Source: Candidatus Bathyarchaeia archaeon (GTDB lineage: Archaea; Thermoproteota; Bathyarchaeia; TCS64). From it: a DNA stretch of 64,000 bases. Below, piece after piece: positions 236-22,081 of the stretch. Each line of letters begins with the position of its first letter. Position 1 is the first letter of the stretch. The stretch covers positions 1 to 64,000 of the forward strand of contig JBEKDF010000011.1 in the NCBI GenBank assembly GCA_050014495.1, read 5' to 3'. The notes under the pieces are model-generated. The model ran no database searches. It had not been told where the DNA came from and worked only from the letters and a program-made list of their open reading frames with translations. Position numbers and translations under genes: made by a program.

Positions 236-378
236 GACCTCAGCCTAACCCCTTTTCAACTTTTTCTCAGAACAACGCGCGCGTGCGCACCCGAGAGACA
301 AGAAATAAAAAAGTGAGAATAACAAGCTAAATTTTATATTCTCTCGCCCTCCACAAGGATTCGAGAGGAAAAGAAGTT

Positions 379-804
379 TTGCAGCAATCAAACCCCACAC
401 AGCCAGCTGCACCCACAGCACCCGCTGCGCCTGCAGCTATCATGCCAACAGCGCCAAAGAAGGCAACTATAGGCTTCGTGTTATCCCTCGTAGGAGCCGT
501 ATTCATTCTAGTACAAGGCGTAGTTAGAATCTTCAGAGGCGAAGCCTTAACATTCCTCGGCTCTGACACGATCCGCCTAAGAGTACTCTCAGGACTAAGA
601 GTAGAGGCTGTCGGCGCAATCGCCATGGTATTCGCAATAATAATTCTGGTTGGAGCATACTTCATTTACCATGTGGGGACCGAGACCGCCGGTGGAATCA
701 TAGTTCTGATCTTTGCTGCGCTGAGCATCATAACAGGCGGTGGCTGGCTCATCGGCTTCATACTAGGAATCATTGGCGGCATTATGGGCCTATTAAAGAA
801 ATAA
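379..804 (+). CDS. small multi-pass membrane protein (DUF4064-like)
   Basis: Pro/Ala-rich N-terminus, hydrophobic Gly-rich helices, GFILGIIGG end. Confidence 0.65.
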   Translation: MQQSNPTQPAAPTAPAAPAAIMPTAPKKATIGFVLSLVGAVFILVQGVVRIFRGEALTFLGSDTIRLRVLSGLRVEAVGAIAMVFAIIILVGAYFIYHVGTETAGGIIVLIFAALSIITGGGWLIGFILGIIGGIMGLLKK

Positions 805-1042
805 CAGCCGCATATCTGAAACACTATTTTTCTGTGTAACCCACTCTCCTCTTTCTTATTACCCGACTATCTTGGTTATCTTTGTGGCTATCTGCGCGTG
901 CGCAGTAAGTAAACTGAAAAGAAAGCATGCAAGTCATCCCTTTTCATAAATGCGTGAGCTCCTAAGAATGCAGCCTCACGCGCATTACGATTCAATACAT
1001 CAGGCTTAATAGCACTTCACACAAGAACCTTTATGACTGAAT

Positions 1043-1345
1043 ATGAGGGCGCTTGAAGAGTTACTTGGTAAGCTCATAGTCGACTCGAAGGGAAACGAGG
1101 TCGGTAAGATAGACGATGTCGAGGTAGACCTAAATTCGAAGCTAGTCGAAGCCATAGTCGTCAAGGGCAAGGGCATACTAGCAAAGCAGTTCCAAGCCGA
1201 GAAACTGGCCTCATTGATGAAGAGGCTTAGAATCACGAAGACCGAGGACTTACTGATACCATTCGACGAGGTGCAGGCCATAGGAAAATACGTCGTCCTC
1301 AAGAGCGGGATAGATCAAGCAAACGAGCCCCCAACTCCAAGTTAA
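1043..1345 (+). CDS. PRC-barrel domain protein
   Basis: LLGKLIVDSKGNEVGKIDDVEVD ... IPFDEVQAIGKYVVL signature. Confidence 0.85.
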   Translation: MRALEELLGKLIVDSKGNEVGKIDDVEVDLNSKLVEAIVVKGKGILAKQFQAEKLASLMKRLRITKTEDLLIPFDEVQAIGKYVVLKSGIDQANEPPTPS

Positions 1346-1446
1346 AGAATTCCATCAGTTTCCAAAACCGCAAATTGTTCACGATCACGCCAACTACTTA
1401 CAAAGCATTCATTTGAAATACTATTGGATCAAAATGAATCGATGCC

Positions 1447-2019
1447 ATGACGAGGACCGATGAGATGGCGGAGCAGTTTAAGGAATCCATAATCGGAAGG
1501 CTTGGACCAGAAGCTGAGGAAACCATATTCAACGGCAAAGCTGCTCCCAACGATCCTGCGAAGCGTGCACTATGGGTCAAAGAAGCCCTAACTAACCTCG
1601 ACAAGACCACAGAGAAGAAAATCTGCAACGAGATTATGCATGGGAACTGAGTCAACTGCGCAAACCATAACATAAGCATAGTAAAAAACTCCCTCAAAAG
1701 ACGGGCAAAGTACACGAGTTTGGACACATTCATAGACGCGGAGATCAAGAAACCCGTCAAGGGGACCATCCTGAGACGCGATGGCGACACCTTGACCCTC
1801 AGCTATCTCCCCCAGAAATTCTCCCACCCCATGCGTTGTTTCTGCGGCCTCGTGAACAGCCTCCCTAAAGATGAGATCTTGTCAGAGACATACTGTGGCT
1901 GCAGTGTAGGCTTTGTGGAAACGTGGTGGAGCCAGGTTGTAGGCAAACCCGTGAAGGTGCAGCTATTAGAATCAGCAATCACTGGCTCGGATGTTTGTCG
2001 GTTCCGGATCACATGGTGA
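1447..2019 (+). pseudogene. Cys-rich DUF6144/V4R-like protein interrupted by one in-frame TGA (1648-1650)
   Basis: ORFs 1447-1650 and 1720-2019 share a frame, and the linker is open (N*VNCANHNISIVKNS); CFCG and YCGCS motifs, VQLLESAITGSDVCRF end. Confidence 0.7.
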
Positions 2020-2132
2020 GGCAAATCATTATTCTAGGCGTATGGACGCGCAAAGCTGCTAATAACGCGTACTTCTTTGGATACAGCCTCGTGAAGCTTA
2101 AGTCCCCATAATCCTCCAGTGACTCGATCACC

Positions 2133-3071
2133 TTGAAGCGCTATAATGTCCAGGGCTCATGGCCAGCCCTAGTAACCCCCTTCGACGAACATGGGGAAGT
2201 CAACATTGAATCCCTCAGAAAGCTCATAGACTTCCACATCGAGTTCGGTAGCAACGGGGTCCTTCTCCTCGGCTCCACTGGGGAGCCTATCCTATTGACT
2301 AGGGATGAGAGGCGGAGGATAGTTGAGGCCTCAGTCGACCACGCGAATGGGCGAATACCAATAATGTGCGGCATCTCAGCACCATCCACAAGGGAGACCA
2401 TCGAGAATGGCCGACACGCGAAAGACGTCGGTGCAGACCTCGGACTGATGGTTCAGCCACCCTACGTTAAGCCCACACAAGCCGCCATCTACAAGTACTT
2501 TAAAGACGTCGCGGACCAGGTTGACCTCCCCCTCGTAATATACAACAACCCCGACAGATGCGTCGTCAACGTGGAGCCCGAGACCGTGGCCCGCCTGGCC
2601 CAGCACCCCAACTTCGTCGCCATCAAGGAGGCGGGCCCGAGTCCCTACGCTGAGATGAGGGTAATCGAGCTCACGAAGGGTGAGTTCAATGTACTCTGCT
2701 GTGACTGCGCTTTCTACGCACACATACCCGTCGTAATGGCCAGCGGCGGAAAGGGAACAAGTAACGTCACAGGCAGTATCTGCCCAACCGAGTTCGTGGA
2801 GATGAGTAAACCTTGGGAGAACTACGACGACGTCCTTCGGACTCGCAAAATCCTCTACACCTTCCTACCCCTCATCAGGATGATGTACAGTGAAAGCAAC
2901 CCAGTCCCCCTCAAGTCAGCATTAAACATGCTCGGGGCTAAGGTTGGGAAACCTAGGCCGCCTCTGACGGAGCTATCAGAAGCAAACGTAGCAACCCTCA
3001 GGCAGACGATGCAGCGCCTCGGAATACTCTCAGAGGACTCCTACCAGATGAGTTTCTTTAAAAAGAAATAA
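2133..3071 (+). CDS. dapA: 4-hydroxy-tetrahydrodipicolinate synthase / DapA family aldolase
   Basis: ALVTPF, GSTGE, YNNP, KEAG, NPVPLK motifs. Confidence 0.85.
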   Translation: MKRYNVQGSWPALVTPFDEHGEVNIESLRKLIDFHIEFGSNGVLLLGSTGEPILLTRDERRRIVEASVDHANGRIPIMCGISAPSTRETIENGRHAKDVGADLGLMVQPPYVKPTQAAIYKYFKDVADQVDLPLVIYNNPDRCVVNVEPETVARLAQHPNFVAIKEAGPSPYAEMRVIELTKGEFNVLCCDCAFYAHIPVVMASGGKGTSNVTGSICPTEFVEMSKPWENYDDVLRTRKILYTFLPLIRMMYSESNPVPLKSALNMLGAKVGKPRPPLTELSEANVATLRQTMQRLGILSEDSYQMSFFKKK

Positions 3072-3177
3072 TACTCGCTACTAATAGTTTGATTCTATAT
3101 CCGCGTCATATTAGCGCGCGCAAGTTCGCAAACGATTATATAAATAGAACAAATATCGTGATCCACAAGTGACTTAG

Positions 3178-3408
3178 ATGGTTGATTTAACCCTCGATGA
3201 GTTGAAGAAGTCTAACGGCAAAAACGGGAACCCTTCATATTTGGCGTATAAGGGAGTCATCTATGATGTTTCAGACAGTACATGGTTTACCGATGGGGAA
3301 CATTTTGATATTCACAGCTGTGGCCAGGACCTAACAGAGGAGATTAGTGAGGCCCCACACGACGATGATGTCTTTTCCAATATTCAGAAGATTGGTAAAT
3401 TAATTTAG
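3178..3408 (+). CDS. cytochrome b5-like heme/steroid-binding domain protein
   Basis: YKGVIYDVS..W..G.H...H..GQDLT....APH pattern. Confidence 0.85.
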   Translation: MVDLTLDELKKSNGKNGNPSYLAYKGVIYDVSDSTWFTDGEHFDIHSCGQDLTEEISEAPHDDDVFSNIQKIGKLI

Positions 3409-3517
3409 ATCTACGAGTGGATGAGCCCGATCCGTTAAATCCTTTTTTTCTTCTTCAGGGCCTAAATCACATGTAGTTTAATTAAGAATAATAAATGCAA
3501 TTACCCTCTGGTGATTT

Positions 3518-4060
3518 ATGAGTCGTTCAGGCAAGCACCTCGGATTCTTGTTCCACCTCGATGAAATGAGGTTTAAGATTTGGCTAGATGGCAACTCCCT
3601 CGCCTGCCTCAAAGAGATCGGGATCCGAGAAGGACAAACTGTCTTAGACATAGGCTGCGGCTCTGGCACATTCACGATTCCCTCCGCTACTCTAGTAGGC
3701 GAAACAGGGATAATATACGCCCTTGACATCGATGATAAAAGCTTAGAAAAACTGCGAAGCAAAGCAGAAAAAGCGGGTCTAAAAAACATCAGAATACTAC
3801 ACACTTCAGCGAATGAAAAGATAAAAATAGATGACAACTCCATCGACCACGTCCTGCTAATAGACGTCCTCCAGGAAGTATCCAACAAGGACCTGCTATT
3901 CGAGGAGGTGAAGAAAGTCCTAAGAACCGGGGGAATATTGACGGTGTTCCCTATGCACATCACCGATGATGAGGTCATCAAGCTAGCTAAAGAGAATGAC
4001 ATTGAATTACTGAGCCGAAAATTCGATGACCGTTTACTGGTATTCACAAAAAATAATTAA
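3518..4060 (+). CDS. class I SAM-dependent methyltransferase
   Basis: VLDIGCGSG motif I, ALDID, VLRTGG. Confidence 0.85.
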   Translation: MSRSGKHLGFLFHLDEMRFKIWLDGNSLACLKEIGIREGQTVLDIGCGSGTFTIPSATLVGETGIIYALDIDDKSLEKLRSKAEKAGLKNIRILHTSANEKIKIDDNSIDHVLLIDVLQEVSNKDLLFEEVKKVLRTGGILTVFPMHITDDEVIKLAKENDIELLSRKFDDRLLVFTKNN

Positions 4061-4157
4061 GTGAACTGTACATTAACTCGCACGCACACGCCCCCACGAG
4101 GATTGCGATCACCTTAAGGTTCACATCATAGTCTACTAACGAAGTTGGGAGACCCCT

Positions 4158-5111
4158 ATGTCCACAAACGAGTCAACTGAGATGGTCACTGTGACCAGCC
4201 TCACGAAGATCTACAAGGGAAGCGTCAAGGCAGTCGATGGAGTGAGTCTCACAATCCAGAAGGGCGAGGTCTTCGGCCTACTCGGCCCCAACGGGGCGGG
4301 GAAAACGACGACTCTACACATGCTCTCCACCATACTGAAGCCAACGAGCGGGGAAGCGAAAGTTAACGGCTTCGACGTCGCTAAGCAGCCTGGGAGAGTA
4401 AGGCAGAGCATCGGGATAGTCTTCCAGGACCCAAGCTCGGATGAGCTGCTGACGGGCTACGAGAACCTGAGGATGCACGCCCTTCTATACGGCGTACCCG
4501 GCTCAATCAGACGTCAACGCATCGACGAGGTGCTCGATCTAGTCGACCTAAAAGATAGGAGAAACGATCTCCTGAAGAACTACTCAGGCGGGATGCGGAG
4601 GAGGCTAGAGATCGCGAGGGGGCTACTCCACAGGCCTAAGGTCCTATTCCTCGACGAGCCGACGCTGGGCCTCGACCCCCAGACACGAGAACACATCTGG
4701 GAGTACATCGAGAAACTCGTGAAGGAGGAGAAACTCACAATCATCATAACGACCCACTACATGGATGAAGCCGACAGACTCTGCGACCGGATAGCCATCA
4801 TGGACAAGGGAGCGATAATCGTCCTAGATACACCCGATGAGTTGAAGAGGAGCCTCGGCGGAGACATCGTCAAGATCAAAGCAAAGACGCCAAACTTCTT
4901 CGCTCTGGAGGCGCTCGACTACGTGAAGCTGGTCGAGGCCGATGGCGAGGAAGTGAAACTCACCGTCGATGACGCGGGTACTCATATCCAGGAGATCCTA
5001 AGCGTCATCGGAAAGGTCGACTCAGTAGAGTTGCGACCACCATCACTAAGCGACGTCTTTCTGAAGTATACGGGGCGAGAATACCGTGAACAGGGAGGCG
5101 GTGGTTCTTGA
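4158..5111 (+). CDS. ABC exporter ATP-binding protein (DrrA-like)
   Basis: GPNGAGKT, YSGGM, FLDEP, TTHYM. Confidence 0.95.
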   Translation: MSTNESTEMVTVTSLTKIYKGSVKAVDGVSLTIQKGEVFGLLGPNGAGKTTTLHMLSTILKPTSGEAKVNGFDVAKQPGRVRQSIGIVFQDPSSDELLTGYENLRMHALLYGVPGSIRRQRIDEVLDLVDLKDRRNDLLKNYSGGMRRRLEIARGLLHRPKVLFLDEPTLGLDPQTREHIWEYIEKLVKEEKLTIIITTHYMDEADRLCDRIAIMDKGAIIVLDTPDELKRSLGGDIVKIKAKTPNFFALEALDYVKLVEADGEEVKLTVDDAGTHIQEILSVIGKVDSVELRPPSLSDVFLKYTGREYREQGGGGS

Positions 5112-5854
5112 CCGAGCTTACCGGACTCTACGCGATCTGGGAACGAGAGGTCAGAGTCTACCTCCGGGAGAGATCGAGAGTCATCTCATCAATAGTGAGC
5201 CCGATACTCTGGCTCGTAGTCTACGGCGTTGGACTAGGCTCCCAGTTCAACGTCTCAGGCATGAGCTACCAATCATACATCTACCCCGGAATCATCGTCA
5301 TGGCGCTGATATTCTCCTCGGTCTTCTACGGGGCCAGCATCGTCTGGGACAAGAAGATGGACTTCCTGAAGGAGGTGCTAGTTGCGCCGGTGAGAAGAAG
5401 CACAGCCTTCATGGGCAAGGTGGCCGGTGGGGCCACTGATGGATTGATCCAAGCTACAATAATACTCCTACTCTCGCCCTTCTTCGGAGTAAATGTGGGT
5501 CTAATCCTAGTCCTCGTCTACTTATTCATGTTCATACTACTCATCGGGCTCGTAAGCATCGGACTCCTCATCGGCAGCTTCATGGAGTCAAGCGAGGGCT
5601 TCAGCCTAATAGGTGGGTTCATAGTATTCCCACTCTTCTTCCTCTCAGGGGCACTATTCCCACTTAACAACCTGCCAGACTGGCTCCTCACCTTAACCAT
5701 AGCCAACCCGGTAACCTATGGTGTAGATGCGATGAGAGGCCTGATGCTCGGAACATACAGGTTCGGGCTCCTCATCGACTTCTCAGTCCTCATCATATTT
5801 GCTGCTGTTATGGTTGGACTCGGATCGATGGCTTTCAACAAGATGAAACTATAA
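5108..5854 (+). CDS. ABC-2 type permease
   Basis: Overlaps ATPase stop; FFLSGALFP, NPVTYGVDAMR. Confidence 0.9.
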   Translation: MTELTGLYAIWEREVRVYLRERSRVISSIVSPILWLVVYGVGLGSQFNVSGMSYQSYIYPGIIVMALIFSSVFYGASIVWDKKMDFLKEVLVAPVRRSTAFMGKVAGGATDGLIQATIILLLSPFFGVNVGLILVLVYLFMFILLIGLVSIGLLIGSFMESSEGFSLIGGFIVFPLFFLSGALFPLNNLPDWLLTLTIANPVTYGVDAMRGLMLGTYRFGLLIDFSVLIIFAAVMVGLGSMAFNKMKL

Positions 5855-5981
5855 ACCTGACACAAGCGCCTTAATCAGACGAATAACGCACGAAATGATT
5901 ATGGATGCATACGCAACGCCTAATACATTATCAACTATGAAAAATACTTCAAATTCCGTGGATCAAATCTAATAGTAGAGT

Positions 5982-6425
5982 TCACATAAGGTCAGGGTAG
6001 TATTGAGGCATCCAAAGATATTTTAGAACATCTTGTACTTCCTCTTTATCCACATAACTTCCAATGTTGCGCATTATATCTCCGGCTGTTAAGACGCCCA
6101 AGAGAGCCCCCTCTTTGACAACTACTAGTCTTCTAATCTTATGCTTGTTCATTTTATTGGCTGCTTCTGATAAATCCTCATCTGGGTCAACTACTATTAG
6201 AGGTGTCGACATTATTTCATCGATCTTCACGTTCTTGGGATCAAGGCCATTCGCAACAACTTTCCAAGCAATATCTTGTTCAGTCACGATGCCAAAGGGT
6301 TTGTCCTGCCTCAAAACTATTGAGCATGATTGTTTTTTTTCGCGCATACTCTTTGAAGCTTCTGTGACGGACATACCTTCGTGGATTATTACCACAGTTT
6401 TTCTCATAGCTTGAGCTACATTCAA
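5982..6425 (-). CDS. CBS domain protein
   Basis: GIVTEQDI, IMSTPLI, GVLTAGDI tandem CBS. Confidence 0.9.
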   Translation of the reverse strand: MNVAQAMRKTVVIIHEGMSVTEASKSMREKKQSCSIVLRQDKPFGIVTEQDIAWKVVANGLDPKNVKIDEIMSTPLIVVDPDEDLSEAANKMNKHKIRRLVVVKEGALLGVLTAGDIMRNIGSYVDKEEVQDVLKYLWMPQYYPDLM

Positions 6426-6579
6426 GGCCTTTTTCTCAATTACTTTAGAATAATCACACTATATTAAGAAATCGCTGCGCGCGCATTCGAGCTTCTCTAA
6501 ACGCAATGGTGGTCAAAGATAAAGAAGATTAGGGCATATGATGCATATGATATTCCAAATTTTTTAACTCCTACTTGAA

Positions 6580-7005
6580 TTATCTTAACATTGAGAAGTT
6601 TCGAGTAACATCCTTAACAATCTTGTCCGCGTATTCGCCAAATCTCAAAGCTAAGGTATTCGGGGTTATCACACCGTAGAAAATATTGTTTTTTACTACC
6701 AGAAGCAGATTCGCACCTCCTCGAATTATCTCCGAGGCGTGTATCATGTCGTCATCAGGGCTTATAGTCGAACACGATGTGGTCATAACATCCATGACCC
6801 TGATTTTAGCTGGGTCCAAGCCCGACGCTATGACTTTGGTTACAATATCTGTGGCGGAGACGAAGCCTTTCGGGATTCCCCTCTCCATTACAACTATGAG
6901 GTCGTGCACGCCATCAGCGATCATGTATGCTGCTTCAAGGATAGGTGTCTCAAAGCTTGTGACTGGGAAGCTAATCTCCATGAAATCCTTTACCTTGAAC
7001 GACAT
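6580..7005 (-). CDS. CBS domain protein
   Basis: VKDFM, GFVSATDI, VMDVMT; start taken at ATG 7005. Confidence 0.8.
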   Translation of the reverse strand: MSFKVKDFMEISFPVTSFETPILEAAYMIADGVHDLIVVMERGIPKGFVSATDIVTKVIASGLDPAKIRVMDVMTTSCSTISPDDDMIHASEIIRGGANLLLVVKNNIFYGVITPNTLALRFGEYADKIVKDVTRNFSMLR

Positions 7006-7167
7006 GGTTATCTCATGACTTCTTTGTCTTAAAAATGTAAGCAAGCCCGACATAAGCGAAAGTAGTAAAAAGCGCGTGCCAACTCCCTCTCTAAACTAAA
7101 TCCTTTGGCTCTGCACTCATTCATTTCAGTTATATATTGAAGGGGTAATTGACCATCTAGACAATCC

Positions 7168-8307
7168 ATGATAATTGGTATCCCAAGCGAGGTAAAGTCA
7201 GGAGAGAACAGAGTGGCACTAACACCCCAGGCCGTTGAATCCCTGAAAGAAAATGGACACCGCATCGTAGTTGAGAAGGATGCGGGAGTAGCTAGCGGCT
7301 TCGCAAACGAGGATTACATACGAGCTGGCGCCGAGATCACAGATAGCCATGAGGCAATATTCGAGTCGGATCTCATCGTAAAGGTGAAGGAGATCCTCCC
7401 CCAGGAGTTCGGGATACTCCGGGAGGGCAAGATCATCATGGCCTACCTCCACTTCACCGAGGGCCTACTAACATCGAAGCGCCCCCTGGCTGATGCACTG
7501 ATGAAGGCCAAGGTGATCGCCTTCTCATACGACACCGTCCAATCTAACGGATCAACTCCCCTCCTCGCCCCGATGAGCGAGATCGCTGGCCACAACGGCG
7601 TCATCATGGGTGCTTACCACCTCCAGACACACCTCGGAGGAGAGGGCGTCATGATTGGGAGAATGGCGGGATGCAGACCCGCCGAAGTCGTCATCATCGG
7701 CGGAGGCTCCGTCGGCACAGGCGCAGCGAAGGCAGCTGTTGGGCTCGGAGCTAACGTCACCATCCTCGACGTCAACGTTCGCCGCCTCAACGAATTGAAC
7801 GAGATCTTCGCCAACAAGGTAACCACGCTGGTCTCTGACACGCGCAACGTCGAGGAGTCCGTCAAGAAGGCCGACCTCGTCATCAACGGCGTCTTCTTCA
7901 ACCCACTCAGAACCAGGAAGAGGATCGTCACAAAAGAGATGGTAAGCCACATGAAGCCTGGGGCAGTCATAGTCGACATAGGCTGCGACCCTGACGGTCC
8001 CATCGAGACGTGTCAGGAGACACATCACGATCACCCCACATTCATATACGAAGGGGTCATACACTACTGCGTACCCAACGTGCCCGGGGCGGTCCCCAGA
8101 ACCGCATCCCAAGCCCTCTCAAACGCCATCCTACCCTATGTGAGAGACGTAGCAAACAAGGGATGGGTGAAGGCGGTGAGGGAGAACGCGGTTCTCAGGA
8201 CGGGTCTAAACATAGCCAATGGAGTGTTCGTCCACATGGAGGGAGCCGCCTGCCAGAAGATGGAATACCACGATCTGGAGGAATTCCTTAAGGAGAAAAT
8301 TATATAA
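7168..8307 (+). CDS. ald: alanine dehydrogenase (Ald type)
   Basis: IGIPSEVKSGENRVALTP, LLAPMSEIAG, GGGSVG, HYCVPNVPGAVPRT. Confidence 0.92.
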   Translation: MIIGIPSEVKSGENRVALTPQAVESLKENGHRIVVEKDAGVASGFANEDYIRAGAEITDSHEAIFESDLIVKVKEILPQEFGILREGKIIMAYLHFTEGLLTSKRPLADALMKAKVIAFSYDTVQSNGSTPLLAPMSEIAGHNGVIMGAYHLQTHLGGEGVMIGRMAGCRPAEVVIIGGGSVGTGAAKAAVGLGANVTILDVNVRRLNELNEIFANKVTTLVSDTRNVEESVKKADLVINGVFFNPLRTRKRIVTKEMVSHMKPGAVIVDIGCDPDGPIETCQETHHDHPTFIYEGVIHYCVPNVPGAVPRTASQALSNAILPYVRDVANKGWVKAVRENAVLRTGLNIANGVFVHMEGAACQKMEYHDLEEFLKEKII

Positions 8308-8427
8308 AATTCTCGCTGACGCGTGAAACTTATTTTAGGCTCGTAAAGGAGTTATTTCTACTTCGCGCGCATAGGTTCTATTTTCACGAGCACACTCATT
8401 CAGTCACGAGTCTAGTTGCCTGTGTAA

Positions 8428-9172
8428 TCATCCAAAAAGGTAGATCCACGCAACATAGACCAAGATATTTAGCACTGTTATGAACACCCCGCTCTTGAGA
8501 AAAGACAGAAAACTGAAGGAACGCCCACCCTGTTCTCAGCAGTCTCGAGGATGATGACATTACTTGCCGCGCCTAGAACAGTCAGGTTACCAGCTATAGT
8601 CGACCCCGAGGCTAGAGCCAACCAAGCGTATTGATGAGCACCGTTGAACCCCAGGCTCTTCATGACGTCGATGTAGAGCTTCACCAGTGGGACGTTGCTG
8701 AACACTTGACTCAGAAGAGTGCTCAACAGCATTATGTTGATGATCGCCGAACCCCTGTCCATTGGGTTCGGAGCGGTATGAGGTTTATGAAGATGTTAGC
8801 TGCGCCGGATTGCCAGAGGGCTCCCATGACCATAAACATGGTCAGGAAGAAGACGATGCTGCTCCAATCCACCTGGCGTAACAGTCCCCGCTTGTCCCTG
8901 GTGAGAGTGTAGATGGGAACCGACGCGAGGAACGCTATTATCCCAAGGTGCTCGGCGTGGGGGAGACCCCAGAGACTTAATAGGTCATTGAGGATGAAGC
9001 CCCCAACCGCGAGAACGAGGCAGGCTCCCGAGATCTTCGCCAACCCATAGTCGCTGATGTGTTCCTCCTCAATGACGACCATATTTTTCCCATCGACCCA
9101 TTTTCCACTCCTCTTAAGAGTAAACCAAAGATAGCCAGCGACGATTGCGAGGTTGATGAGGGTGGGGACCCC
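8428..9172 (-). pseudogene. ArsB/NhaD/SLC13-type anion permease, 5'-truncated and frameshifted
   Basis: Pieces in different frames: PTLINLAIV, VDWSSIVFFLTMF, SQVFSNVP, STIAGNLTVLGAASNVII, FSFLSFLKSG...*. Confidence 0.8.
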
Positions 9173-9902
9173 CGCGCGCGCACGGTGAGAGAGCGACCGC
9201 TTTCATGGACGTTGGCGACGACAACTACCAGGTACCCGGGTTGTAATCAAAGGAATACTCTCGGGTTGTTCGGGGGACGCATGCACACGCGCATATATCT
9301 CCTATACAGTGTGTGCATTGTTCCCGTTTACTATGGGATATTTGCTCTATTCGTGCGCAGTAATTCAATTGTGTATCGTTAGCTCTCAAACCGCTTTTTT
9401 ATTTGCGCATTCATTGTTGTTTTTCTTCTATGTATAAGCCTACTAAGTTTGAATGATGCTTTATTCCTTAATATGGTTCAAATAAATGCGTTTTAACTGC
9501 CTTAGTAAAGCCTAAGCCCCTGTTTATTCATCGAATCTTTACTTGAAATGGTTTGTTTGATATGGTTAGAGTTCGCATTGGTTGCTTGTATTATATGGTA
9601 GTATACGTTGCTCTATGAGCTCTTTAGATAGACTAGTGTAACTGCATCAATAAACCCACTAGAACCACTATTATGAGTATCTGCTGCTACTACTACTGCG
9701 CTAGCATAGGGGGTTAAGGTAACTAATTGTGTAAAGGGAAGGATAGATGTGGTGGCGCGTGTATATGCGCATCGTTAGTGTTATTGTCTTTCGATAGTTT
9801 TTGAGAATGTATCCGATTGTGCATATTTACGTTTTGTCAGATTTTTGATTATTGTATTAAATGCTATATGGTGACACGTTATTTTTATTTCAGTGGTCTC
9901 CG

Positions 9903-10673
9903 ATGCCTAAGATGAAGAAGGAGAAGTCAGACGAAATCGTAAGGCTCCTTAATGAGGGTTACACGAATGTGGAGATTGCGAAAAAGACCCACATAAGTGA
10001 GGGGACTGTGAGTAGGCTAAGGGGCAGGCTGAAGAAGAGTAATGATGGTGTCGCTAAGGTGGAGGTGAAGAGTGAATCGTCAGCTTCGATAAATGTTCTC
10101 CTGTCGGGGGAATCTCTGAAGAAGCTCGGGGCGATCCAAGTTGTCCTTGGCTGCAATACACTGGATGAGGCAGTTGATCTACTGCACAGCGACGTGCCAA
10201 AGATGATGTCCTATAAGTTCAAGGCCTACCCAGATTTTCACGGAACGCCGGGCGATGTCTTCAAAGAGGTTGTTGAGACCTCTAGGCTGTTTAGCGAAGT
10301 TACCGACCCTCGGAACAGGGAGACTGAACTTCAGTCTGAGGTATTGGCTAAAATGGGAATGAGTTGGTTCATTAAAGGACTCTACAGGCTCGAATGAAGA
10401 AATGAGACTCTTGTCCAGTTTATGGAAAGGAATTTGCTCGACTATTACAAGGAGAAGGGTTGGTCGTTTAAAAAGAAATTTAGGGATGAGTTGAGGCAGA
10501 TGGACCCCACATTGGAGGGTGAGCTAACTGGAGACTTGTTATCGATTCATCCACCCAATAGTGATTCATGGTTCTTCCCCATTGAGACAGAACATTACTT
10601 CGGAGTCATGACCGAGCCGTCCGAAAAAATGGCCTGGATTAGCTTGATGAAAACTGGGATAAAGCCACCTTAG
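9903..10673 (+). pseudogene. HTH DNA-binding protein interrupted by one in-frame TGA (10395-10397), or two adjacent genes
   Basis: GYTNVEIAKKTHISEGTVSR HTH; ORF 10422-10673 in the same frame with open linker E*RNETLVQFM. Confidence 0.55.
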
Positions 10674-10886
10674 CATGAGAATAATGACTCCCGTTATAAT
10701 ATCAAGGATGAGGCAAAATAGCCTCTGCTCCCCATTTAGAAACCCCAACTTTTAAACAATCAAGCGCGCGCATATTCAATTCTAACTATTCCAAAGAAAC
10801 TCCACCTGATAGCCTCTACCTATGAGGAATTCAGTAAAACGCATCTTGGATGATAAGCGCGAGTCTCTGCATGCCAGCTTATTCGA

Positions 10887-11771
10887 TTAAATCTTTGGTG
10901 GGCTTGGCGGTATCTGTCTCTTGTGTGCGGTGCCCGAGATCTTCTCCAGAACTTTATCCACAATTATAGTATCGATCCCGTAACTATCAGAAAGGACCTC
11001 CTTCGATGACTGTAGACTCATCTTTTTGCCTATTCCATCAACAACGGTTGCCAGAATCAGGTCCAGTTCCTCATAGCTAAAACCAAGCTCCTTCTCGGCA
11101 GTCATCCCGGGAACAAGGTTAGGCGAGGACCTCTTCGAGATGATCCCCCTAGGAAGGTCCAACTCTCTAGCGAGTTCTCTGACTTGGGTCTTGTACACGT
11201 TGAGGATTGGCTCAAGGTCCACCCCCCCATCCCCGTACTTCGTGAAGTAACCCATAAACCACTCCGACCGATCAGTCGTCCCCACCACAACTGATCTCCC
11301 AGGCATCAACTGACTAACCTCATAGAGTTTAATCATCCTAACCCTGGCCTTCAAGTTCCCATACTGGACCCCGTTTCTATAAACGCCTCCGGGACCCCGA
11401 TCAGCAATCTCCGGATCTTGTTGAACGAAGGCGGAGATAAGGGAGGAGATATCATATTTCTTAGTCCTAATACCCAATTTATCCGCGAGATGAGTCGCGT
11501 CCTCAACATCCTTAGGGTCTGTGACATCTCCATCGGGGAGAAGCACACCAATTACCTTCTCCCCCCCAAGGGCATTAACCAGGATCGATGCAACCACACT
11601 CGAGTCAAGGCCCCCCGAGAGCCCGAGGACAGCATACTCGAGCCGATGTTGTTCAAAGTAGTCTCTAATCCACCCTCGTATGCCTTGGGCCTCAGTTGCA
11701 GCACTCCAACCGGTTTCCCTCCAGAACTCCGTCAGATCCTTAAGATCCTTCATTAGTCTATTCACCCTCAA
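10887..11771 (-). CDS. nadE: NH3-dependent NAD+ synthetase
   Basis: GLSGGLDS, NLKARVRM, GYFTKYGDG, KTQV. Confidence 0.93.
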   Translation of the reverse strand: MRVNRLMKDLKDLTEFWRETGWSAATEAQGIRGWIRDYFEQHRLEYAVLGLSGGLDSSVVASILVNALGGEKVIGVLLPDGDVTDPKDVEDATHLADKLGIRTKKYDISSLISAFVQQDPEIADRGPGGVYRNGVQYGNLKARVRMIKLYEVSQLMPGRSVVVGTTDRSEWFMGYFTKYGDGGVDLEPILNVYKTQVRELARELDLPRGIISKRSSPNLVPGMTAEKELGFSYEELDLILATVVDGIGKKMSLQSSKEVLSDSYGIDTIIVDKVLEKISGTAHKRQIPPSPPKI

Positions 11772-12036
11772 GCAGGTGCTTCATCTGCTCCAATATCTGC
11801 CCTGTATTCCCAATACTCACGTTAAGGGATCGCCACCCGTCGATGCACGCTTTTATCTTATTGGCGTCAACACCCATAATCTCATCGAGGGGAACGGTCA
11901 CCTTGTAGCCAAGTATCTCGGCCAAGTACATCACCGCCAGATCGACACACATCAGACGCAACCCCGTAGACCACTACTCATCAGGCTCCATAAAGTCAAC
12001 CTGCGTATCAATATCCCAAAACAAGATTCTCCTCAT
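11758..12036 (-). pseudogene. pncA: nicotinamidase (cysteine hydrolase) relic with large internal deletion and frameshift
   Basis: MRRILFWDIDTQVDFMEPD joined directly to VVVYGVASDVC (shifted frame), then VDLAV...GYKVTV; lies between pncB and nadE. Confidence 0.75.
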
Positions 12037-12051
12037 CACTGTTTCACCTAC

Positions 12052-13404
12052 CTAGGCAGTGTACTGCCTCGTCAGCTTCTCGGTGAGATCCTCAAGCTCA
12101 TCACTTATCTTGAGTTCGTATGGCTTAGCACCTACAATCCTCTTACACTCATCCGGCAGCTTCGCCACGCAGCCCAAGGAGTACTCCCTGATATCCCTGA
12201 GATCTCTGATCCCCCTGATTCTTCTCCCACTCTCAACAGCTGGCTCAAGGAGAGACATTCCAATGCCTCCCTCCTTATCGAGCTGCAGAATATCATACAG
12301 GTATCTCCCATCCCCACCAGTGACTCTGCATAACTGCTTCCTACCCGGATGCGTCTGCTTACTATCCGAAAGTTTGATCCTCGGCCCAAAGTTGTCCTCG
12401 ACAAGTTTGTAGACCCCAGACAGTGCGGATATAGGTTTAGCTGTGATCATCTCGGTACCTACACCGTAGAAGTCAACTGGCACACCAGATCGCGTGAACT
12501 CATCGATCTTGTACTCATTCAGATCGCTGCTCACACCGATCTTCACGTAACTCAGGCCCTCCTCATCGAGCAAGCCCCTGATAATATTAGAAAGACTCTC
12601 CACGTTCCCTGAGTCGATCCTCACAGCAGCTAAGTGGTCGCCCCTCAACTCCATCTCCTTAGCCACAATCGCTGCCACCCTCGCACCCGCCAACGTGTCG
12701 TATGTGTCTATCAGAAACACGGAACTCTTGGGGAAAGTGCGCGCATAGGCCCTGAACGCGTCGGCCTCCTCGGGGAAGCCCATCACAAAGCTGTGAGCCA
12801 TCGTACCGGAGGGAGGAATATCATACTCTCTGGCAGCCTCCACATTACTTGTAGCATCGACTCCAGCAATGTACTCTGCTCGTGCACCCCTAACGCCTGC
12901 GTCGAATCCCTGGGCTCTCCTAAGTCCAAAGTCTACGACCTTGGCTTTACCTGCCGCGTTCACGACTCGGCTAGCCTTAGAGGCTATCAGTGTCTGGAAG
13001 TTTACGGTGTTGAGAAGCGCCGTCTCCAGAAGCTGAGCCTGTGGACGCTTAGCCGTCACCCGCATTATCGGAGAGTCCACGGTGATTGGGGTCCCCTCAT
13101 TGAGTGCAGTAATATTCCCTTCGAATCTGAAGTGACGGAGGTAGTCAAAATAATCGTCTTTGAAGATGTTTAACCCCTGAAGATAGGCTACATCATCATC
13201 TGTGAATCGTACCTTCGTAGCATAGTCGATAGCATCATCAATTCCTACCGCGACAAAGTAGCCCCAGTTGGTTGGCAGGGTCCTTATGAACATCTCGAAT
13301 GAGGCGATCTCGTCCTCCTTGTCGTTGTCGATATATGCGGCGTTCATCGTAAGTTGATATAGATCAGTAAGTAGAGCACTTCGTTTATTCTCGTATCCAC
13401 TCAT
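12052..13404 (-). CDS. pncB: nicotinate phosphoribosyltransferase
   Basis: LLTDLYQLTM, DFGLRRAQG, GTMAHS, LIDTYD, RIDSG, VYKLV. Confidence 0.95.
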   Translation of the reverse strand: MSGYENKRSALLTDLYQLTMNAAYIDNDKEDEIASFEMFIRTLPTNWGYFVAVGIDDAIDYATKVRFTDDDVAYLQGLNIFKDDYFDYLRHFRFEGNITALNEGTPITVDSPIMRVTAKRPQAQLLETALLNTVNFQTLIASKASRVVNAAGKAKVVDFGLRRAQGFDAGVRGARAEYIAGVDATSNVEAAREYDIPPSGTMAHSFVMGFPEEADAFRAYARTFPKSSVFLIDTYDTLAGARVAAIVAKEMELRGDHLAAVRIDSGNVESLSNIIRGLLDEEGLSYVKIGVSSDLNEYKIDEFTRSGVPVDFYGVGTEMITAKPISALSGVYKLVEDNFGPRIKLSDSKQTHPGRKQLCRVTGGDGRYLYDILQLDKEGGIGMSLLEPAVESGRRIRGIRDLRDIREYSLGCVAKLPDECKRIVGAKPYELKISDELEDLTEKLTRQYTA

Positions 13405-13574
13405 CTATACCCTTTCCTTTAGAAAGTTGGATGCGCGCTAGATATACCAATATCGAAGGTTGCATAAGTGATCAGGTAAAAGAGGCCAATCTTCGAGGCG
13501 TGAGAAAGTGTAGAACAACACATATGTACCATTTAGGGTGAATTGATTAGGTAAAAAGTAATTATTAGGATAGC

Positions 13575-13889
13575 TCATTTGCTAAAGATCGTGGAAGGGG
13601 AGCAAACTTGAATTGTCTGCTCAAGTACCCCAGCTTCTGTGAACACCTTTTGCATCTCAGGCGTCTTTACGAAGTCTACGAAATCGTTAGCTTCCTCATC
13701 GCTCCACTCAAAGACGATGTGGTGTTTGTTATGATCCTTCTCAAACTGTAGTATTACACCACCCTTAGACCCATTCCTGTGAGGTGCGTCACCATCGAAA
13801 GTCTTCAACCATCTAGCGTGATCCTTCACCCTCTCGTAGACAACTACATGAACCAAACCAATCTCATCTAATTTTCGCTTAGGAAACAT
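13575..13889 (-). CDS. small hypothetical protein (probable dimeric alpha/beta barrel)
   Basis: VKDHARWLKTFD...PEMQKVFTEAGV pattern. Confidence 0.6.
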   Translation of the reverse strand: MFPKRKLDEIGLVHVVVYERVKDHARWLKTFDGDAPHRNGSKGGVILQFEKDHNKHHIVFEWSDEEANDFVDFVKTPEMQKVFTEAGVLEQTIQVCSPSTIFSK

Positions 13890-13962
13890 TTTTATTAAAT
13901 ATTACGCGTGTGCAGGCGCACAACAAGGTCGTCCTAACTCGTGTAAGTGCGCTTGTTCTTCT

Positions 13963-14739
13963 CTAAGTTTTTCTTGTGTCTCTCATTTCTTCTCTTCTCG
14001 TTTTTCGTCTCTCATTTTCCTCCTTCTCTGATATCTTTTCTTTTTTCTCAGCATCTATTTCTTGTTTCCTTCTTTCTTCAGTTCTCTCTTTTTCTTTCTT
14101 TTCTTCTTCTTTATCTTTTTTCTCAGCTTCTCTTCTATTCTCTATTCCCATAGTTTTTATTTCTTTTCCTCTTAATTCCCTCCTATCTCTTTCTTCTCTA
14201 TCTGCTCTTTCCTCTAATCTCATAGATTCACCTCTCTTTATACTTCTTTCTTCACGTCTATCTATCTCACCAGACTCTTCTAATATCTCATTATAAAAGA
14301 GAGAAGATATTTTTACCACGTCTTCCACTCTTTCGCTCATAAATTCATAGTGATTAATTCTTCCTTCAAGATAAAATGGAGTAAATACCGCCTTCTCTCC
14401 CATATTTTTAATTTTCTTTGCGACTTTTATAGTTTTTAACGAAAGGTCTTTGATGACACTGATGTATCTATCCCTTTCTCTTGGGTTTTGAGCAGCCTCC
14501 AAAATGGCCTTATCCACTGTCGTTTGATATTTTTGCATTGCTTCTTTATAATTTTCATCATTTATACTTTTCTCTACCTCCTCGATGAGGCTCTCGAGAT
14601 CCGTTTTGGGTATGGCCGTTATAGGATTTAGATATAGGCTACTAGAGAGAAAATCATACAATTTTGTGTCATCTCCACATAGCTCCTTCAACAGATTTTC
14701 CTCTTTCTCTTCCTTCCTCTTTTCTTTCTTTTTCCACAT
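13963..14739 (-). CDS. hypothetical protein with E/R/K-rich helical C-terminus
   Basis: 258-aa ORF; last ~100 aa dominated by charged residues. Confidence 0.65.
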   Translation of the reverse strand: MWKKKEKRKEEKEENLLKELCGDDTKLYDFLSSSLYLNPITAIPKTDLESLIEEVEKSINDENYKEAMQKYQTTVDKAILEAAQNPRERDRYISVIKDLSLKTIKVAKKIKNMGEKAVFTPFYLEGRINHYEFMSERVEDVVKISSLFYNEILEESGEIDRREERSIKRGESMRLEERADREERDRRELRGKEIKTMGIENRREAEKKDKEEEKKEKERTEERRKQEIDAEKKEKISEKEENERRKTRREEMRDTRKT

Positions 14740-14917
14740 AAACCCAAGTCGCCACTTTATTATTTGAATCAGTTTGCAATAAAGTCTTTTGATTAAGAAT
14801 CAAGGTAGGATAGTTGTTTTAACACCCGCGAAAACAATTCGCGGCACACTACTCAGGTGCACCTTAACTTTAACAATGATATACCCTCGACATACAAGTC
14901 ATCATGTGCGCGCGCGC

Positions 14918-16258: not shown

Positions 16259-16430
16259 CCGGTAATGTGATATATACTGAGTTCTTTAAGTGCGTGCTAT
16301 TGTTTGAAGCACCCATCGTCATTATCGGATATAATGATGCGTGTGTGACATTGGGGGTGCGCGCTAAACACTCCATCATTATTCTAGCTCGGTACTAAAC
16401 CCAGAGATGGAGTAAAGATGGTAGAGTTTA

Positions 16431-16834: not shown

Positions 16835-16877
16835 TTAGAAGTTGTTGAATGATTGAGTGAGTAGGAAGGATAAGAAG

Positions 16878-17015
16878 ATGGTCCCCGATCCGAAACCTAA
16901 CCAGAACCCGACACCGGATCCAACTCAGAACCCTACACCAAAACCGAACCCGAATCCAACGCCAGACCCAACTCCCAACCCGAACCCTGGTCCCAACCCT
17001 GGACCCCAAAAATAA
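16878..17015 (+). CDS. 45-aa Pro-X repeat microprotein MVPDPKPNQNPTPDPTQNPTPKPNPNPTPDPTPNPNPGPNPGPQK
   Basis: Pro codons vary synonymously (CCC/CCG/CCT/CCA), indicating a protein-level repeat; purine-rich leader; poly-T tracts downstream. Confidence 0.65.
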   Translation: MVPDPKPNQNPTPDPTQNPTPKPNPNPTPDPTPNPNPGPNPGPQK

Positions 17016-17022
17016 TCCAATT

Positions 17023-17052
17023 AATTTTTTTTTGGCTATTTTTTTTGATTTT
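17023..17052 (+). terminator. oligo-T archaeal terminator
   Basis: Two long T runs directly after the micro-ORF. Confidence 0.5.
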
Positions 17053-17106
17053 CTATCATAAACAACGCGAGTAAACAATTGTAAAATATATTCCAAATTT
17101 CTTTGC

Positions 17107-18144: not shown

Positions 18145-18304
18145 GATATGCTCACCTACTTTATTTGAATCCGTTTTATTTTTATAGTATTCAAGTCTGT
18201 ACTTTTCACATTTCGTGCATGTGCAATCGTATAGATTGTGTGAAAGGCGATTCCATGATTTATGAAACTTCGTTTGAAAAATCGTGCACTCGATTAACCA
18301 GTGA

Positions 18305-18454: not shown

Positions 18455-18712
18455 GTCAATTCTTCCCATTTATTTTTTGGGAATGAATGTTAATAAACCA
18501 ATTTATTCTCGCCGCTACTCCAGATCCTAATTTTTCCATGCAAGCGACGTATGTTAGTAACGCTTTATTGAAAGCCTCTTTCAGAGGCAGTTCGATTACA
18601 CTTTCTCTCCTCAGGGACTTTATGTCCTTGAAGAAAAGATACATGGAATCGGCGCCATATAAGGGGAAGGATAGGCTCACGATTTCGAAGAGCGCGCGCG
18701 CAGAGTGTCGTC

Positions 18713-18883
18713 TTACTCTTTGGCCTTTCTTTTAACTTTCCCTATTTCCTCTTGAGCTTGCCCTTCAACTTGCTCAATCTTGCCTTTGAGCTGTTCAGTT
18801 TTGTTATCCGTTATTTTACCTACTTCTTCACAAATCTGTCCCTTGATTCATTTACCTCCTCCTTCTACTTCGTCATTGCTCAG
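18713..18883 (-). pseudogene. csbD: CsbD-family stress protein, with in-frame TGA (18848-18850) and 3' frameshift
   Basis: SNDEVEGGGK*IKGQICEEVGKITDNKTEQLKGKIEQVEGQAQEEIGKVK. Confidence 0.7.
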
Positions 18884-18964
18884 GTTTGCTTGATAATCTT
18901 CGTAGTTAATAAAGCGCATATGCCACGAAAAACAGAAGCGTTTTCGCGCGCGCCAACTCTCCAA

Positions 18965-19261
18965 CTAAGTTTCGTCTACTGGTTTTAGGTACGCGTGAAG
19001 TTGTGTTTTTGGGACCTTTATGTTTAGCCCTTTTTCTGTCCATAGTGCAACCCCTTCCTCTAGGGCTGAAGTGGCCAACATGTTTCGTACCCCACCTTTC
19101 TTTGCGCCAAGAACAGATTCAGCTGCATCCTTGGTCAATTCGACTTCAAGATGAGTTACTTTCCAATTTTCTGGATCTATTCCAATATCTTTGACTTTAC
19201 CTATTTTCTCGCTACCAAGATAAACATCTTTGTCCATAAACTCTTTACTTTTCATCCTCAT
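18965..19261 (-). CDS. PRC-barrel domain protein
   Basis: KIGKVKDIGIDPENWKVTHLEVEL; BRE/TATA (GAAAAAAGCTTTATTAA) upstream. Confidence 0.75.
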   Translation of the reverse strand: MRMKSKEFMDKDVYLGSEKIGKVKDIGIDPENWKVTHLEVELTKDAAESVLGAKKGGVRNMLATSALEEGVALWTEKGLNIKVPKTQLHAYLKPVDET

Positions 19262-19388
19262 TTTTCCCTCCAGTTTTGATATTTGAAGCAATATTAATAA
19301 AGCTTTTTTCTCATAGGTTTAGATGCGAGTGCGCCTAGTGAAGTAAAAAGAGACTAAAAGAGATTGGGTGCGCGGACTTTAGGAATAG

Positions 19389-19463
19389 TGGGCCCGAAGG
19401 GACTTGAACCCATGACCACCCGGTTATGAGCCGGGTGCTCTAGCCAAACTGAGCTACGGGCCC
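19389..19463 (-). tRNA. tRNA with CAT anticodon, probably tRNA-Ile2 (agmatidine type) rather than Met
   Basis: Cloverleaf with GGGCCCG acceptor, CCCGG-CTCATAA-CCGGG anticodon arm, GTTCAAGTC T-loop; GGGCCC acceptor is typical of archaeal Ile tRNAs. Confidence 0.9.
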
Positions 19464-19560
19464 ACGCATCAGGTAAACCTCCACAGAGAATATAAAAATA
19501 CTACCGACAATTAGGGCTGAGCAACGATTATAAACGGGTCGAAGCCTAACATCTCAGCGC

Positions 19561-19639
19561 GCTCCCGTGGTGTAGACCGGACAAGCATACTGGCCTTTCG
19601 AGTCAGGGATCCCGGGTTCAAATCCCGGCGGGAGCACCA
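19561..19639 (+). tRNA. tRNA-Glu(TTC) with encoded CCA
   Basis: GCTCCCG/CGGGAGC acceptor, CTGGC-CTTTCGA-GTCAG arm, GGTTCAAATCC; TTATAAA box upstream. Confidence 0.95.
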
Positions 19640-19876
19640 ACCACCAAGTTCGATTCCCTTCCCTATTTCTCCTAAGGGTGTGGCACCTACGAGTAACGGG
19701 GACATCTACGAGACCAACCAGCGCGCACGAAGACTGTAATAACAATAATTAAACGAAGACCGAGCAAGATCATGAACAACTCATTGAATTTTAAGCCTAG
19801 CTATCTCCAGAACAGAAGAGAGAACCTTTGGTTGCTCCAAAAAGAGTGCGCATTGCTACAATTAATAACCAGATTG

Positions 19877-21115: not shown

Positions 21116-21280
21116 TTTACATCAGCTTCAGCTAGTACCCACACGTAGCAATACCAGCAACCAACACAAGCAACGTATATAATCTTCACCCTCAGTGAGG
21201 ACATGTTAGACTTCCAATTCGACTTTTATACCTTATATCTAATGTAGGCCAAACACTACCTCAATCGCTAATCCAATAAA

Positions 21281-21360
21281 ATGCGCGCGCACGCGAGCTC
21301 TGTAAAAATTAGTAACAAATGATACTCTATTCAAAATTCTGCGCGCGCACGGCCCTGTAA
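21281..21360 (+). repeat. imperfect direct repeat TGCGCGCGCACG...CTGTAA (two copies about 58 bp apart)
   Basis: Copies at 21282-21305 and 21340-21360. Confidence 0.6.
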
Positions 21361-21565
21361 TACCTTGATCTAAGGTATATAATGCGGTGGCGAACGGTGA
21401 GTATGCACGAGAATTCTGACTAGAATAGCCAACTCTCGAGACAATCGATCGCTACACGAGCGTTGACGAGTAAATAACCTTGAAGCAACCTGAACTATAA
21501 GTAAAAACCTTCAAAGAGACAGTTCGACAAGCGTTTCTAAACTGATCATAAACTTGAATTCTATT

Positions 21566-21587
21566 AGGTTGTTTCAAATTACAACCT
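21566..21587. promoter_or_regulatory. inverted repeat AGGTTGT-N8-ACAACCT, candidate operator
   Basis: Perfect 7-bp arms about 95 bp upstream of the ORF at 21681. Confidence 0.4.
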
Positions 21588-21680
21588 CAGAGTGTATCAT
21601 AGTCTACAGGTGATTTGGAGAGTTTAAATGTGCAATAAATTTAATAACTCATATAATCACGCTTATTACAGGTGAAAAAA

Positions 21681-21932
21681 ATGAGTGATATACCATTCAA
21701 ATTGGTAGATGTTGAAAAAAAGCCTTCTAGGAAGTATAGAAAGGGTAGCAAATATGACCCCATCATCGATAGATTCGTCGGTGGTAAGTCCAGCCTAGTG
21801 AAGGTTGAGGTCACAGGTAAGGATGCAAACTACCTGAGGACTCAATTAAAGAAGAGAATCGATGCCCGAGACCTGAACGCTAAGATTGAGGTCTCCGTAG
21901 TAAATAACGTTGCCTACCTTGAGAAGATGTAG
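21681..21932 (+). CDS. small basic hypothetical protein (candidate nucleic-acid-binding)
   Basis: KKPSRKYRKGSKYDPII...YLRTQLKKRI; AGGTGA SD-like sequence upstream. Confidence 0.75.
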   Translation: MSDIPFKLVDVEKKPSRKYRKGSKYDPIIDRFVGGKSSLVKVEVTGKDANYLRTQLKKRIDARDLNAKIEVSVVNNVAYLEKM

Positions 21933-22081
21933 GAATTTCTGATCACCGTTTATTGTTACCTTTTTGATAGAGATAACTATAGATGACATCATCATTAATT
22001 TAAAACAATCAGATAGCCATTAACTCTATTGACGAAGACTTATCCTATCCCAGGTTGCAATCGCGTGCGATGCGATAGAAT

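Follow-up and report, generated by a model that had tools for sequence, protein, structure and literature searches.

What are the short alternating purine-pyrimidine tracts that stud the spacers in the first 22 kb of contig JBEKDF010000011.1 from a Candidatus Bathyarchaeia archaeon (assembly GCA_050014495.1)? The window, the whole stretch of 64,000 nucleotides analysed here (positions 1 to 64,000 of the forward strand), is contig C11 of a 3.1-Mb assembly, and the genome is coded G000 in the comparisons. An earlier note on this DNA had read the tracts as a dispersed signal in cis, such as a Z-DNA torsion buffer, an insulator or a methylation site, and had named a recombination scar as the last of its options. 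We conclude that the short CGCGCGCG runs are, with high probability, scars written at DNA junctions. Position at junctions, absence from the parental DNA, a phase rule, a length cap and restriction to one lineage were all observed.

Gene boundaries were set with our own gene caller, a CG-rich tract was defined as at least 8 bp with at least 5 CG/GC steps, and 200 dinucleotide shuffles served as the null for the window. The intergenic DNA of positions 1-22075 (6,618 bp) holds 20 CG-rich tracts against a shuffle mean of 1.0 (maximum 5), and the coding DNA of the same region holds 1 against 1.4. In the intergenic DNA of 22076-64000 (3,637 bp) there is 1 tract against 0.16 in shuffles, and this core is poorer in tracts even per intergenic base. 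All 18 tracts listed by the earlier note lie where it placed them, with the sequence it gave and with perfect alternation, and its description of them as intergenic, rare in open reading frames (ORFs), sparse in the 22-62 kb core, concentrated in variable DNA and unrelated to miniature inverted-repeat transposable elements or repetitive extragenic palindromes was borne out, as was the enrichment over a dinucleotide-matched background on which it had staked the pattern. The alternation that it took for the signal proved sound for the CG-rich tracts only: CG-poor alternating tracts are no more frequent than chance predicts (15 against 15.0 for the spacers of 1-22075), and therefore the enriched signal is (CG)n, not purine-pyrimidine alternation. 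The (CA/TG) variants look like decayed or varied CG runs.

The genome as a whole contains 1,256 CG-rich tracts, of which 976 are fully intergenic. The feature is thus genome-wide and, though enriched in the first 22 kb, not peculiar to them. Against a Markov background, as the note had proposed, GCGCGCGC occurs 902 times in intergenic DNA on both strands, where 4.2 (order 1) or 175 (order 3) would be expected, while GCGCGC in coding DNA was observed 596 times against 773 expected. Pure intergenic runs number 180, 130, 97 and 4 at 8, 9, 10 and 11 bp, respectively. The suspicion that the tracts mark assembly joins was not upheld. At 893, 6476 and 9755 contigs of a public sequencing run, one not flagged as a possible source, run through the tracts without difference (the comparison covered positions 1-13950 and was based on 8 listed of that run's 69 pieces), and the tracts are therefore not assembly joins. 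A separate metagenome contig, identical over 20,864 bp, may come from the source sample.

The trait is typical of one Bathyarchaeia family and is lineage-restricted. The nearest relatives of the cytidylate kinase gene, at 74-84% identity, all belong to Bathyarchaeia (5 of 6 loci), in keeping with placement in that class. Of 24 other family genomes 22 carried TGCGCGCGCG, as did 2 of 16 from outside the family, and 30 of 71 family genomes carry at least 20 GCGCGCGC per Mb. Two AT-rich genomes, G001 and G010 (33-36% GC in the stretches examined), have one GCGCGCGC each, against 40-512 elsewhere in the same genus.

The tracts coincide with the places where homology breaks off, at sites of deletion, capture and fusion. 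Ends of internal repeats fall inside tracts in 96 of 1,432 cases, against 12.9 for shifted positions. In comparisons with the presumed parents (paralogues or relatives at 75-100% identity; with assembly contamination at 7.5%, some paralogues may come from a co-binned relative), the parent was without the tract at 171 of 199 junction sides not involving an insertion sequence (IS), and at 226 of 255 such sides when more DNA was taken with looser cut-offs. For 18 junctions both sides could be assigned. Neither parent has the tract in 11 of these, which contain 4-12 unexplained bases, and one parent has it in the other 7. The 11 include the window junction at 9173-9184, and also internal deletions of 169, 1,994 and 2,031 bp, for which both ends lie in one parent. 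Among 56 colinear insertions or deletions (indels) picked blind to tracts, the tract was found in the short allele only in 13 (one duplicate and two weak motif matches included, and no null expectation computed), in both alleles in none, and at one end of the long allele in 6 events. The comparison of related genomes, also proposed earlier, showed that intergenic tracts are rarely spanned by a homologue (10 of 980 in the homologous DNA compared), and a metagenome scan for this window found no close strain with the pre-deletion allele. Like junctions were found in another tract-rich genome, G021 (5 of 5 sides). Since the tracts lie at rejoined DNA and are missing from intact parents, they are likely scars left by a so far undescribed route of DNA repair and not a Z-DNA signal, in agreement with the last option of the earlier note.

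Within the window, 6 of the 18 listed tracts have junction evidence, clear at 6476, 9173, 13903 and 19721 and weak at 14903 and 18692. For the other 12 no homologue ending at the tract was found, and none of the 18 is spanned by a homologue. The features are as follows, the strand being given for the one gene and unassigned for the others.

275-290: CG-rich tract following the first ORF; in the DNA compared, neither a spanning homologue nor one ending here was found.
893-904: CG-rich tract; bridged unchanged by a contig of the other run.
3114-3122: (GC)4A tract after the DHDPS gene; sequence confirmed.
4079-4091: varied tract after a methyltransferase gene; a homologue match from G016 ends at 4076.
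6476-6486: junction tract; homology to G012 (77%, 478 bp) ends at 6474, the parent being without the tract; bridged in the other run.
8364-8373: tract after the alanine dehydrogenase gene; sequence confirmed.
8428-9173, minus strand: truncated CitMHS/ArsB-type transporter gene that has lost its 5' part where the tract lies; the match to four homologues (73-83%) breaks off at 9168-9173, beyond which these continue without a tract.
9173-9184: linker of a two-sided junction; left parent G002 (83%, 750 bp), right parent G012 (83%, 59 bp), both without the tract.
9277-9298: varied tract of 22 bp; sequence confirmed.
9755-9772: varied tract; bridged in the other run.
10764-10775: (GC)4ATAT tract; sequence confirmed.
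13903-13914: junction tract; two homologues (76-79%) end at 13899-13904, without the tract.
14903-14917: tract, probable junction; a weak homologue (66%, 207 bp) begins at 14918, without the tract.
16357-16364: tract; sequence confirmed.
18214-18225: decayed tract common to a paralogous locus, not listed earlier; contig C89 has a purer CG run there, from which the window copy differs by transitions.
18692-18702: (GC)5A tract, probable junction; a 41-bp homologue (85%) ends at 18692, without the tract (weak).
18714-18913: 200-bp piece between two tracts, with homologues elsewhere.
18914-18923: varied junction tract, not listed earlier; three homologues (74-82%) end at 18913, none of the three with a tract at the break and one with a tract 9 bp on.
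18945-18953: pure tract of 9 bp; sequence confirmed.
19721-19729: junction tract downstream of tRNA-Glu; a homologue on contig C8 (80%, 165 bp) ends at 19721, without the tract.
21281-21295: tract; sequence confirmed.
21340-21351: tract; sequence confirmed.

At 9173-9184 the cut transporter gene abuts an unrelated piece of DNA. The tract at 22062 was rejected as a junction: an orthologue spans the site and lacks the tract through point changes. The tract at 12737 sits inside a conserved ORF. An Rfam scan of the window returned two tRNAs only, tRNA-Met and tRNA-Glu (19388-19721), both close to the border of the variable region; contig C8 carries tRNA-Glu a second time, together with 80 bp of flank. 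Two further ORFs of the region are a low-complexity Glu/Lys/Arg-rich one at 13963-14739, with no Pfam match, and a short Pro/Asn/Asp repeat ORF at 16857-17015, adjoining a radical SAM gene.

The inserted bases follow definite rules. At 88 clean sides, a parent-end C was followed by G 33 times and a parent-end G by C 26 times, so that addition is in register with the broken end in 59 cases and out of phase in 1, where about 16 would be expected at random by our hand estimate. After a parent-end T, the next base was G in 12 cases and C in 6. The insert overlaps the parent by at least one base at 95 of 171 sides (74 expected, slightly above chance) and by 0-1 base at 137 of 171, and so the microhomology of 2-4 GC pairs with 1-2 bp indels typical of the archaeal primase PriSL is not what these junctions display. 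Run length grows little with overlap (means of 8.1, 8.3 and 9.0 for 0, 1 and 2 shared bases), and runs at junction sides stop sharply at 10 bp except for single runs of 13, 14 and 18, lengths that might be explained by IS footprints of +4. A G-start is preceded by T at 58% of ends in G000 against 39% in genome G016 (p = 5e-6), a difference that fits a genome-specific template edge. Inside the tracts, variants amount to 2-5 transitions for each transversion, whereas non-coding alignments as a whole give a ratio of about 1.4. The 40 bp upstream of start codons are poor in tracts, the peak lies at 40-60 bp, and tracts are over-represented immediately downstream of stop codons. Convergent gaps shorter than 500 bp are the richest, with 2.3-3.7 tracts per kb, and divergent gaps of 60-500 bp hold fewer, 0.75-1.7 per kb. 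These positions probably reflect selection on where deletions may end.

A short (CG)n template would fit the phase rule together with the nearly constant cap and the self-complementarity of the sequence, and we regard the full model, that is, end joining through a (CG)n linker by a short template and a primase-type enzyme, as somewhat more probable than its negation. The starting event would be a DNA break, although another kind of strand exchange is conceivable. The template would be a (CG)n sequence no longer than about 10 nt, present as a free oligomer or as part of a small RNA; a broken 3' end would pair with it through one or two terminal bases and would then be extended. Since (CG)n is self-complementary, any two extended ends could anneal and be sealed. 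The enzyme would be a primase-type polymerase copying a short alternating C/G template, the candidates being PriSL and a compact primase encoded at G000:C53:7058-7864. The resulting scar would decay mainly by transitions, which preserve the alternation, and selection against the loss of promoters and gene ends would leave scars after stops and 40-60 bp upstream of starts. IS5-like elements would insert afterwards into the CGCG core.

As for the enzyme, PriS and PriL are both encoded, and being universal they are not discriminating. Of known activities, that of PriSL comes closest. Archaeal PriSL is described as annealing strands by 2-4 GC pairs, adding bases, switching templates and repairing breaks in vivo (PMC12019639, PMC3333859). 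Its microhomology end joining in Saccharolobus resembles the present scars in Ku independence, base addition, G:C annealing and C/G-biased insertions (same sources). The inserts described here differ in being 4-12 bp long, alternating, self-complementary and capped near 10 bp, and in joining unrelated DNA.

The compact primase is a candidate scar writer judged from its sequence. It has 268 aa with intact catalytic motifs and belongs to a family of 91 proteins, with 48 representatives of its homologues at E < 1e-30. The structure model (predicted local distance difference test score 86) finds its best match in archaeal PriS (E 1.7e-12). About 70 nt upstream of the gene are conserved in its three copies, with (A/G)TGCG in 3 of 3, which seems to echo the ATGCG edge of the scars. 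Whether a dedicated compact primase of PriS fold, with its own short RNA template, tails any broken end, using the logic of telomerase to glue ends and not to cap them, is a tentative idea to which we give rather less than even weight. The gene lies near an integrase-like gene and was not found in viral contigs. At the end of many of its homologues stands an HPEP or YPEP motif with variable sequence after it, perhaps the sign of a conserved nucleic-acid element. Elsewhere in the genome, a 54-bp non-coding stretch at G000:C4:47185-47237, 89% identical to G021, is possibly a small RNA.

Other enzymes were tried and set aside. Of 41 genomes, only 5 have an intact copy of a 439-aa primase-like gene (G000:C20:26047-27707); no conserved RNA flanks it, and it is paired with a conserved 114-aa ORF, in neighbourhoods that differ among the 5 genomes. 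NurA copy number does not separate tract-rich from tract-free genomes. G000 has three NurA loci (C2:92203-98407, C9:4106-10600 and C35:12362-14919), two with HerA, Mre11 and Rad50 and one with HerA only, the genes being named from sequence motifs. Profiles of PolB2, PolY, PolX, RVT_1 and NTP_transf_2, several of which were searched in 5 genomes only, gave none that matches the trait. No Y-family polymerase match was obtained in 5 genomes, nor any RVT_1 match in 5 genomes, from which a divergent reverse transcriptase could escape.

Several points weigh against the model of templated junction scars. The parents compared are not true ancestors, and at 29 of 255 sides the parent shares the tract. 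None of the enzymes examined tracks the trait, and comparison by eye of 24 PriS sequences revealed no residue diagnostic of tract-rich as opposed to tract-free genomes. The compact primase was detected only in G000 (one near-complete copy and five fragments on other contigs) and G016 (fragments), and was not found in 980 kb of G021 (43% of that genome). Its upstream (A/G)TGCG, known from three copies only, sits in a predicted stem and includes no GCGC run. A comparison of G000 with the same 43% of G021 gave no conserved non-coding RNA with an alternating CG stretch. The cap is softer in G021, where 59, 20, 8, 2 and 1 runs have lengths of 9-13 bp, and it could arise if long runs were purged later; the differences in edge letter could be due to base composition or mutation bias. 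Published PriSL scars, finally, are mostly indels of 1-2 bp forming CC, GGC, CGG or CCG (PMC12019639).

Among other origins of the tracts, an untemplated writer, namely a nucleotidyltransferase (PolX-PHP, PolB2 or an unrecognised enzyme) that alternates C and G by protein-directed selection and whose long runs are purged later, is unlikely. The phase rule would suit an enzyme that reads the last base, DRT3 is a known case of protein-directed alternating synthesis, and each of the 4 tract-rich genomes examined encodes a canonical PolX-PHP, two of these genomes being without LigD. However, PolX is found also in tract-free G053, relative to whose version it has no insert; PolB2 is broken in G016, has no intact copy found in tract-rich G005, G008 and G009, and is present in tract-free G028 and G030; and a cap nearly independent of overlap is easier with a fixed template. 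The PolB2 gene of tract-rich G016 (G016:C21:144145-146243) is in three pieces. It is decidedly unlikely that the tracts came first, as fragile or recombinogenic sites (Z-DNA breaks or short-homology exchange) from which a junction inherits the tract of one partner. The instability of (CG)n in other organisms, the 29 sides at which tract and parent agree and the 7 two-sided junctions with one tract-bearing parent would be so explained, but such fragility cannot produce the first tract, internal deletions exist with both ends in one tract-free parent, and no gyrase match that could supply negative supercoiling was found in the 5 genomes searched. The IS5-like family (DDE_Tnp_1) might, in reshuffling the accessory genome, have left the tracts as target duplications and excision footprints. 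Of its 22 paired copies 17 are flanked by CGCG on each side, its transposase matches are most numerous in tract-rich G000 (14) and G016 (20), and one IS lies in the scar of a 420-bp deletion. Nevertheless, once the 28 shared sides and the IS-end junctions are removed, the parents show CGCG near the break at 7 of 171 sides, where chance would give 5.6, and close transposase copies (69-77%) are present in tract-poor G045, G067 and G084. No transposase match was found in tract-rich G013 (351 GCGCGCGC), G015 (177, in 20 contigs), G057 (164) and G003 (75), an absence weakened by the frequent failure of IS elements to assemble. The footprint origin is largely refuted for most tracts and, as a general account, very unlikely; the family targets tracts but does not explain them. 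No IS copy of 22 is spanned by a homologue, and one has both flanks in one parent, 420 bp apart. The elements (G000:C5:82610-83895, with copies in G016, G012 and G002) and their derivatives of 380-490 bp insert at CGCG inside scars, and many contig ends of G000 stop at them.

The Ku-LigD operon of G000 as writer of the filler is highly improbable. A complete operon (LigD polymerase, Ku and ligase-phosphoesterase) lies at G000:C3:64206-67463, and Ku is present in 14 of 17 other genomes of the genus. Yet LigD polymerase occurs in 13 of 30 tract-rich and 20 of 41 tract-poor genomes (Fisher p = 0.81; 71 genomes, cut-off 20 per Mb, kin not independent and GC uncorrected) and was not found in 5 of 5 genomes of the tract-rich genus g5. 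All 5 junction sides examined in G021 are of the same type although no Ku or LigD was found there, G021 being an N-joined scaffold, 92% complete, whose gene absences are not those of a closed genome. In G000 the LigD polymerase, Ku, ligase-phosphoesterase and DUF72 genes form one operon (G000:C3:63436-67463). Archaeal genes for non-homologous end joining (NHEJ) are said in one preprint not to form a single operon (10.1101/2023.09.30.560322). Least probable of all is a selected signal in cis, whether a Z-DNA torsion buffer, an insulator, or a protein or methylation site. Strong intergenic enrichment, non-random position, internal variants that are mostly transitions and the alternation required of a Z-DNA element speak in its favour, but the tracts are not conserved at homologous positions, the CG-poor tracts are at chance level and most intact parents are tract-free. 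A length of 8-10 bp is short for stable Z-DNA. Transcription unwinds DNA behind promoters, in divergent rather than convergent gaps, whereas the tracts reach their highest density in the convergent ones, which makes a Z-DNA buffer unlikely. No GyrA match was obtained in 5 genomes (G000, G013 and G021 among them), and in G000, G013 and G021 there was no match to Z-alpha (one weak match in tract-free G024) or to a C5 methyltransferase. The buffer, insulator and methylation readings of the earlier note are accordingly disfavoured. Another dispersed element of the genome is a repeat of about 30 bp, with 163 copies (C24, C50, C75, C74, C15 and others; none in the window) lying 22-28 bp upstream of the starts of short, tandemly arrayed paralogous genes, perhaps a shared promoter-leader or cassette site.

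Junction scars of this kind resemble several known systems in part. Prokaryotic NHEJ (Ku and LigD, Methanocella type) also joins without homology, with deletions and added bases, and its genes are present in G000; they do not, however, track the scars across 71 genomes, and to our knowledge a constant repeat insert is not a known NHEJ product. Eukaryotic end joining (TdT, Pol mu, Pol theta) leaves non-parental bases at junctions and captures fragments, but its filler is random or copied from the flanks, whereas here one sequence is written everywhere. Telomerase at breaks adds a constant repeat in register with the last bases of an end; telomerase caps ends, while the tracts join two ends, and no reverse transcriptase match was found. 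HIP1 of cyanobacteria and DNA uptake sequences are likewise short motifs confined to a lineage in hundreds of copies, but they are abundant in coding DNA and conserved in place, unlike the present tracts, which are intergenic, variable in length, absent from parents and seldom spanned. Elements of IS5/IS1182 type (DDE_Tnp_1) have a 4-bp palindromic target, and the family found here, inserting at CGCG inside tracts, is of this kind; it explains a few dozen of about 1,000 tracts, most parents being without the target at the break. According to surveys, runs of this kind are suppressed in prokaryotes or show mild enrichment at most (PMC4060949, PMC12699852, 10.64898/2025.12.30.697008); the main texts of the latter two do not name Bathyarchaeia, which their supplementary tables could list. 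In a search that left subscription papers and supplements outside, no published account was found of the pattern in Bathyarchaeia, of archaeal junction filler, of NHEJ in Bathyarchaeia, of alternating synthesis or of RNA-templated primase end joining.

How archaea without a working Ku pathway rejoin breaks is described as an open question (PMC12019639). With about 1,000 legible scars per genome, bearing a fixed sequence, a phase rule and a cap, the question becomes testable, and candidate enzymes can be scored on in-phase writing of (CG)n and on a stop near 10 nt. The novelty lies in the scar and its rules; should PriSL of the ordinary kind prove responsible, the scars would represent a variant of primase-mediated end joining. 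If there is an enzyme that renders any two ends cohesive, it would make a useful joining tool. The scars map rearrangements in uncultured genomes and explain why the IS5-like family stays out of genes, and, if a dedicated end-joining enzyme does exist, all broken ends would be mutually cohesive, leading to deletion and fragment capture in the accessory genome.

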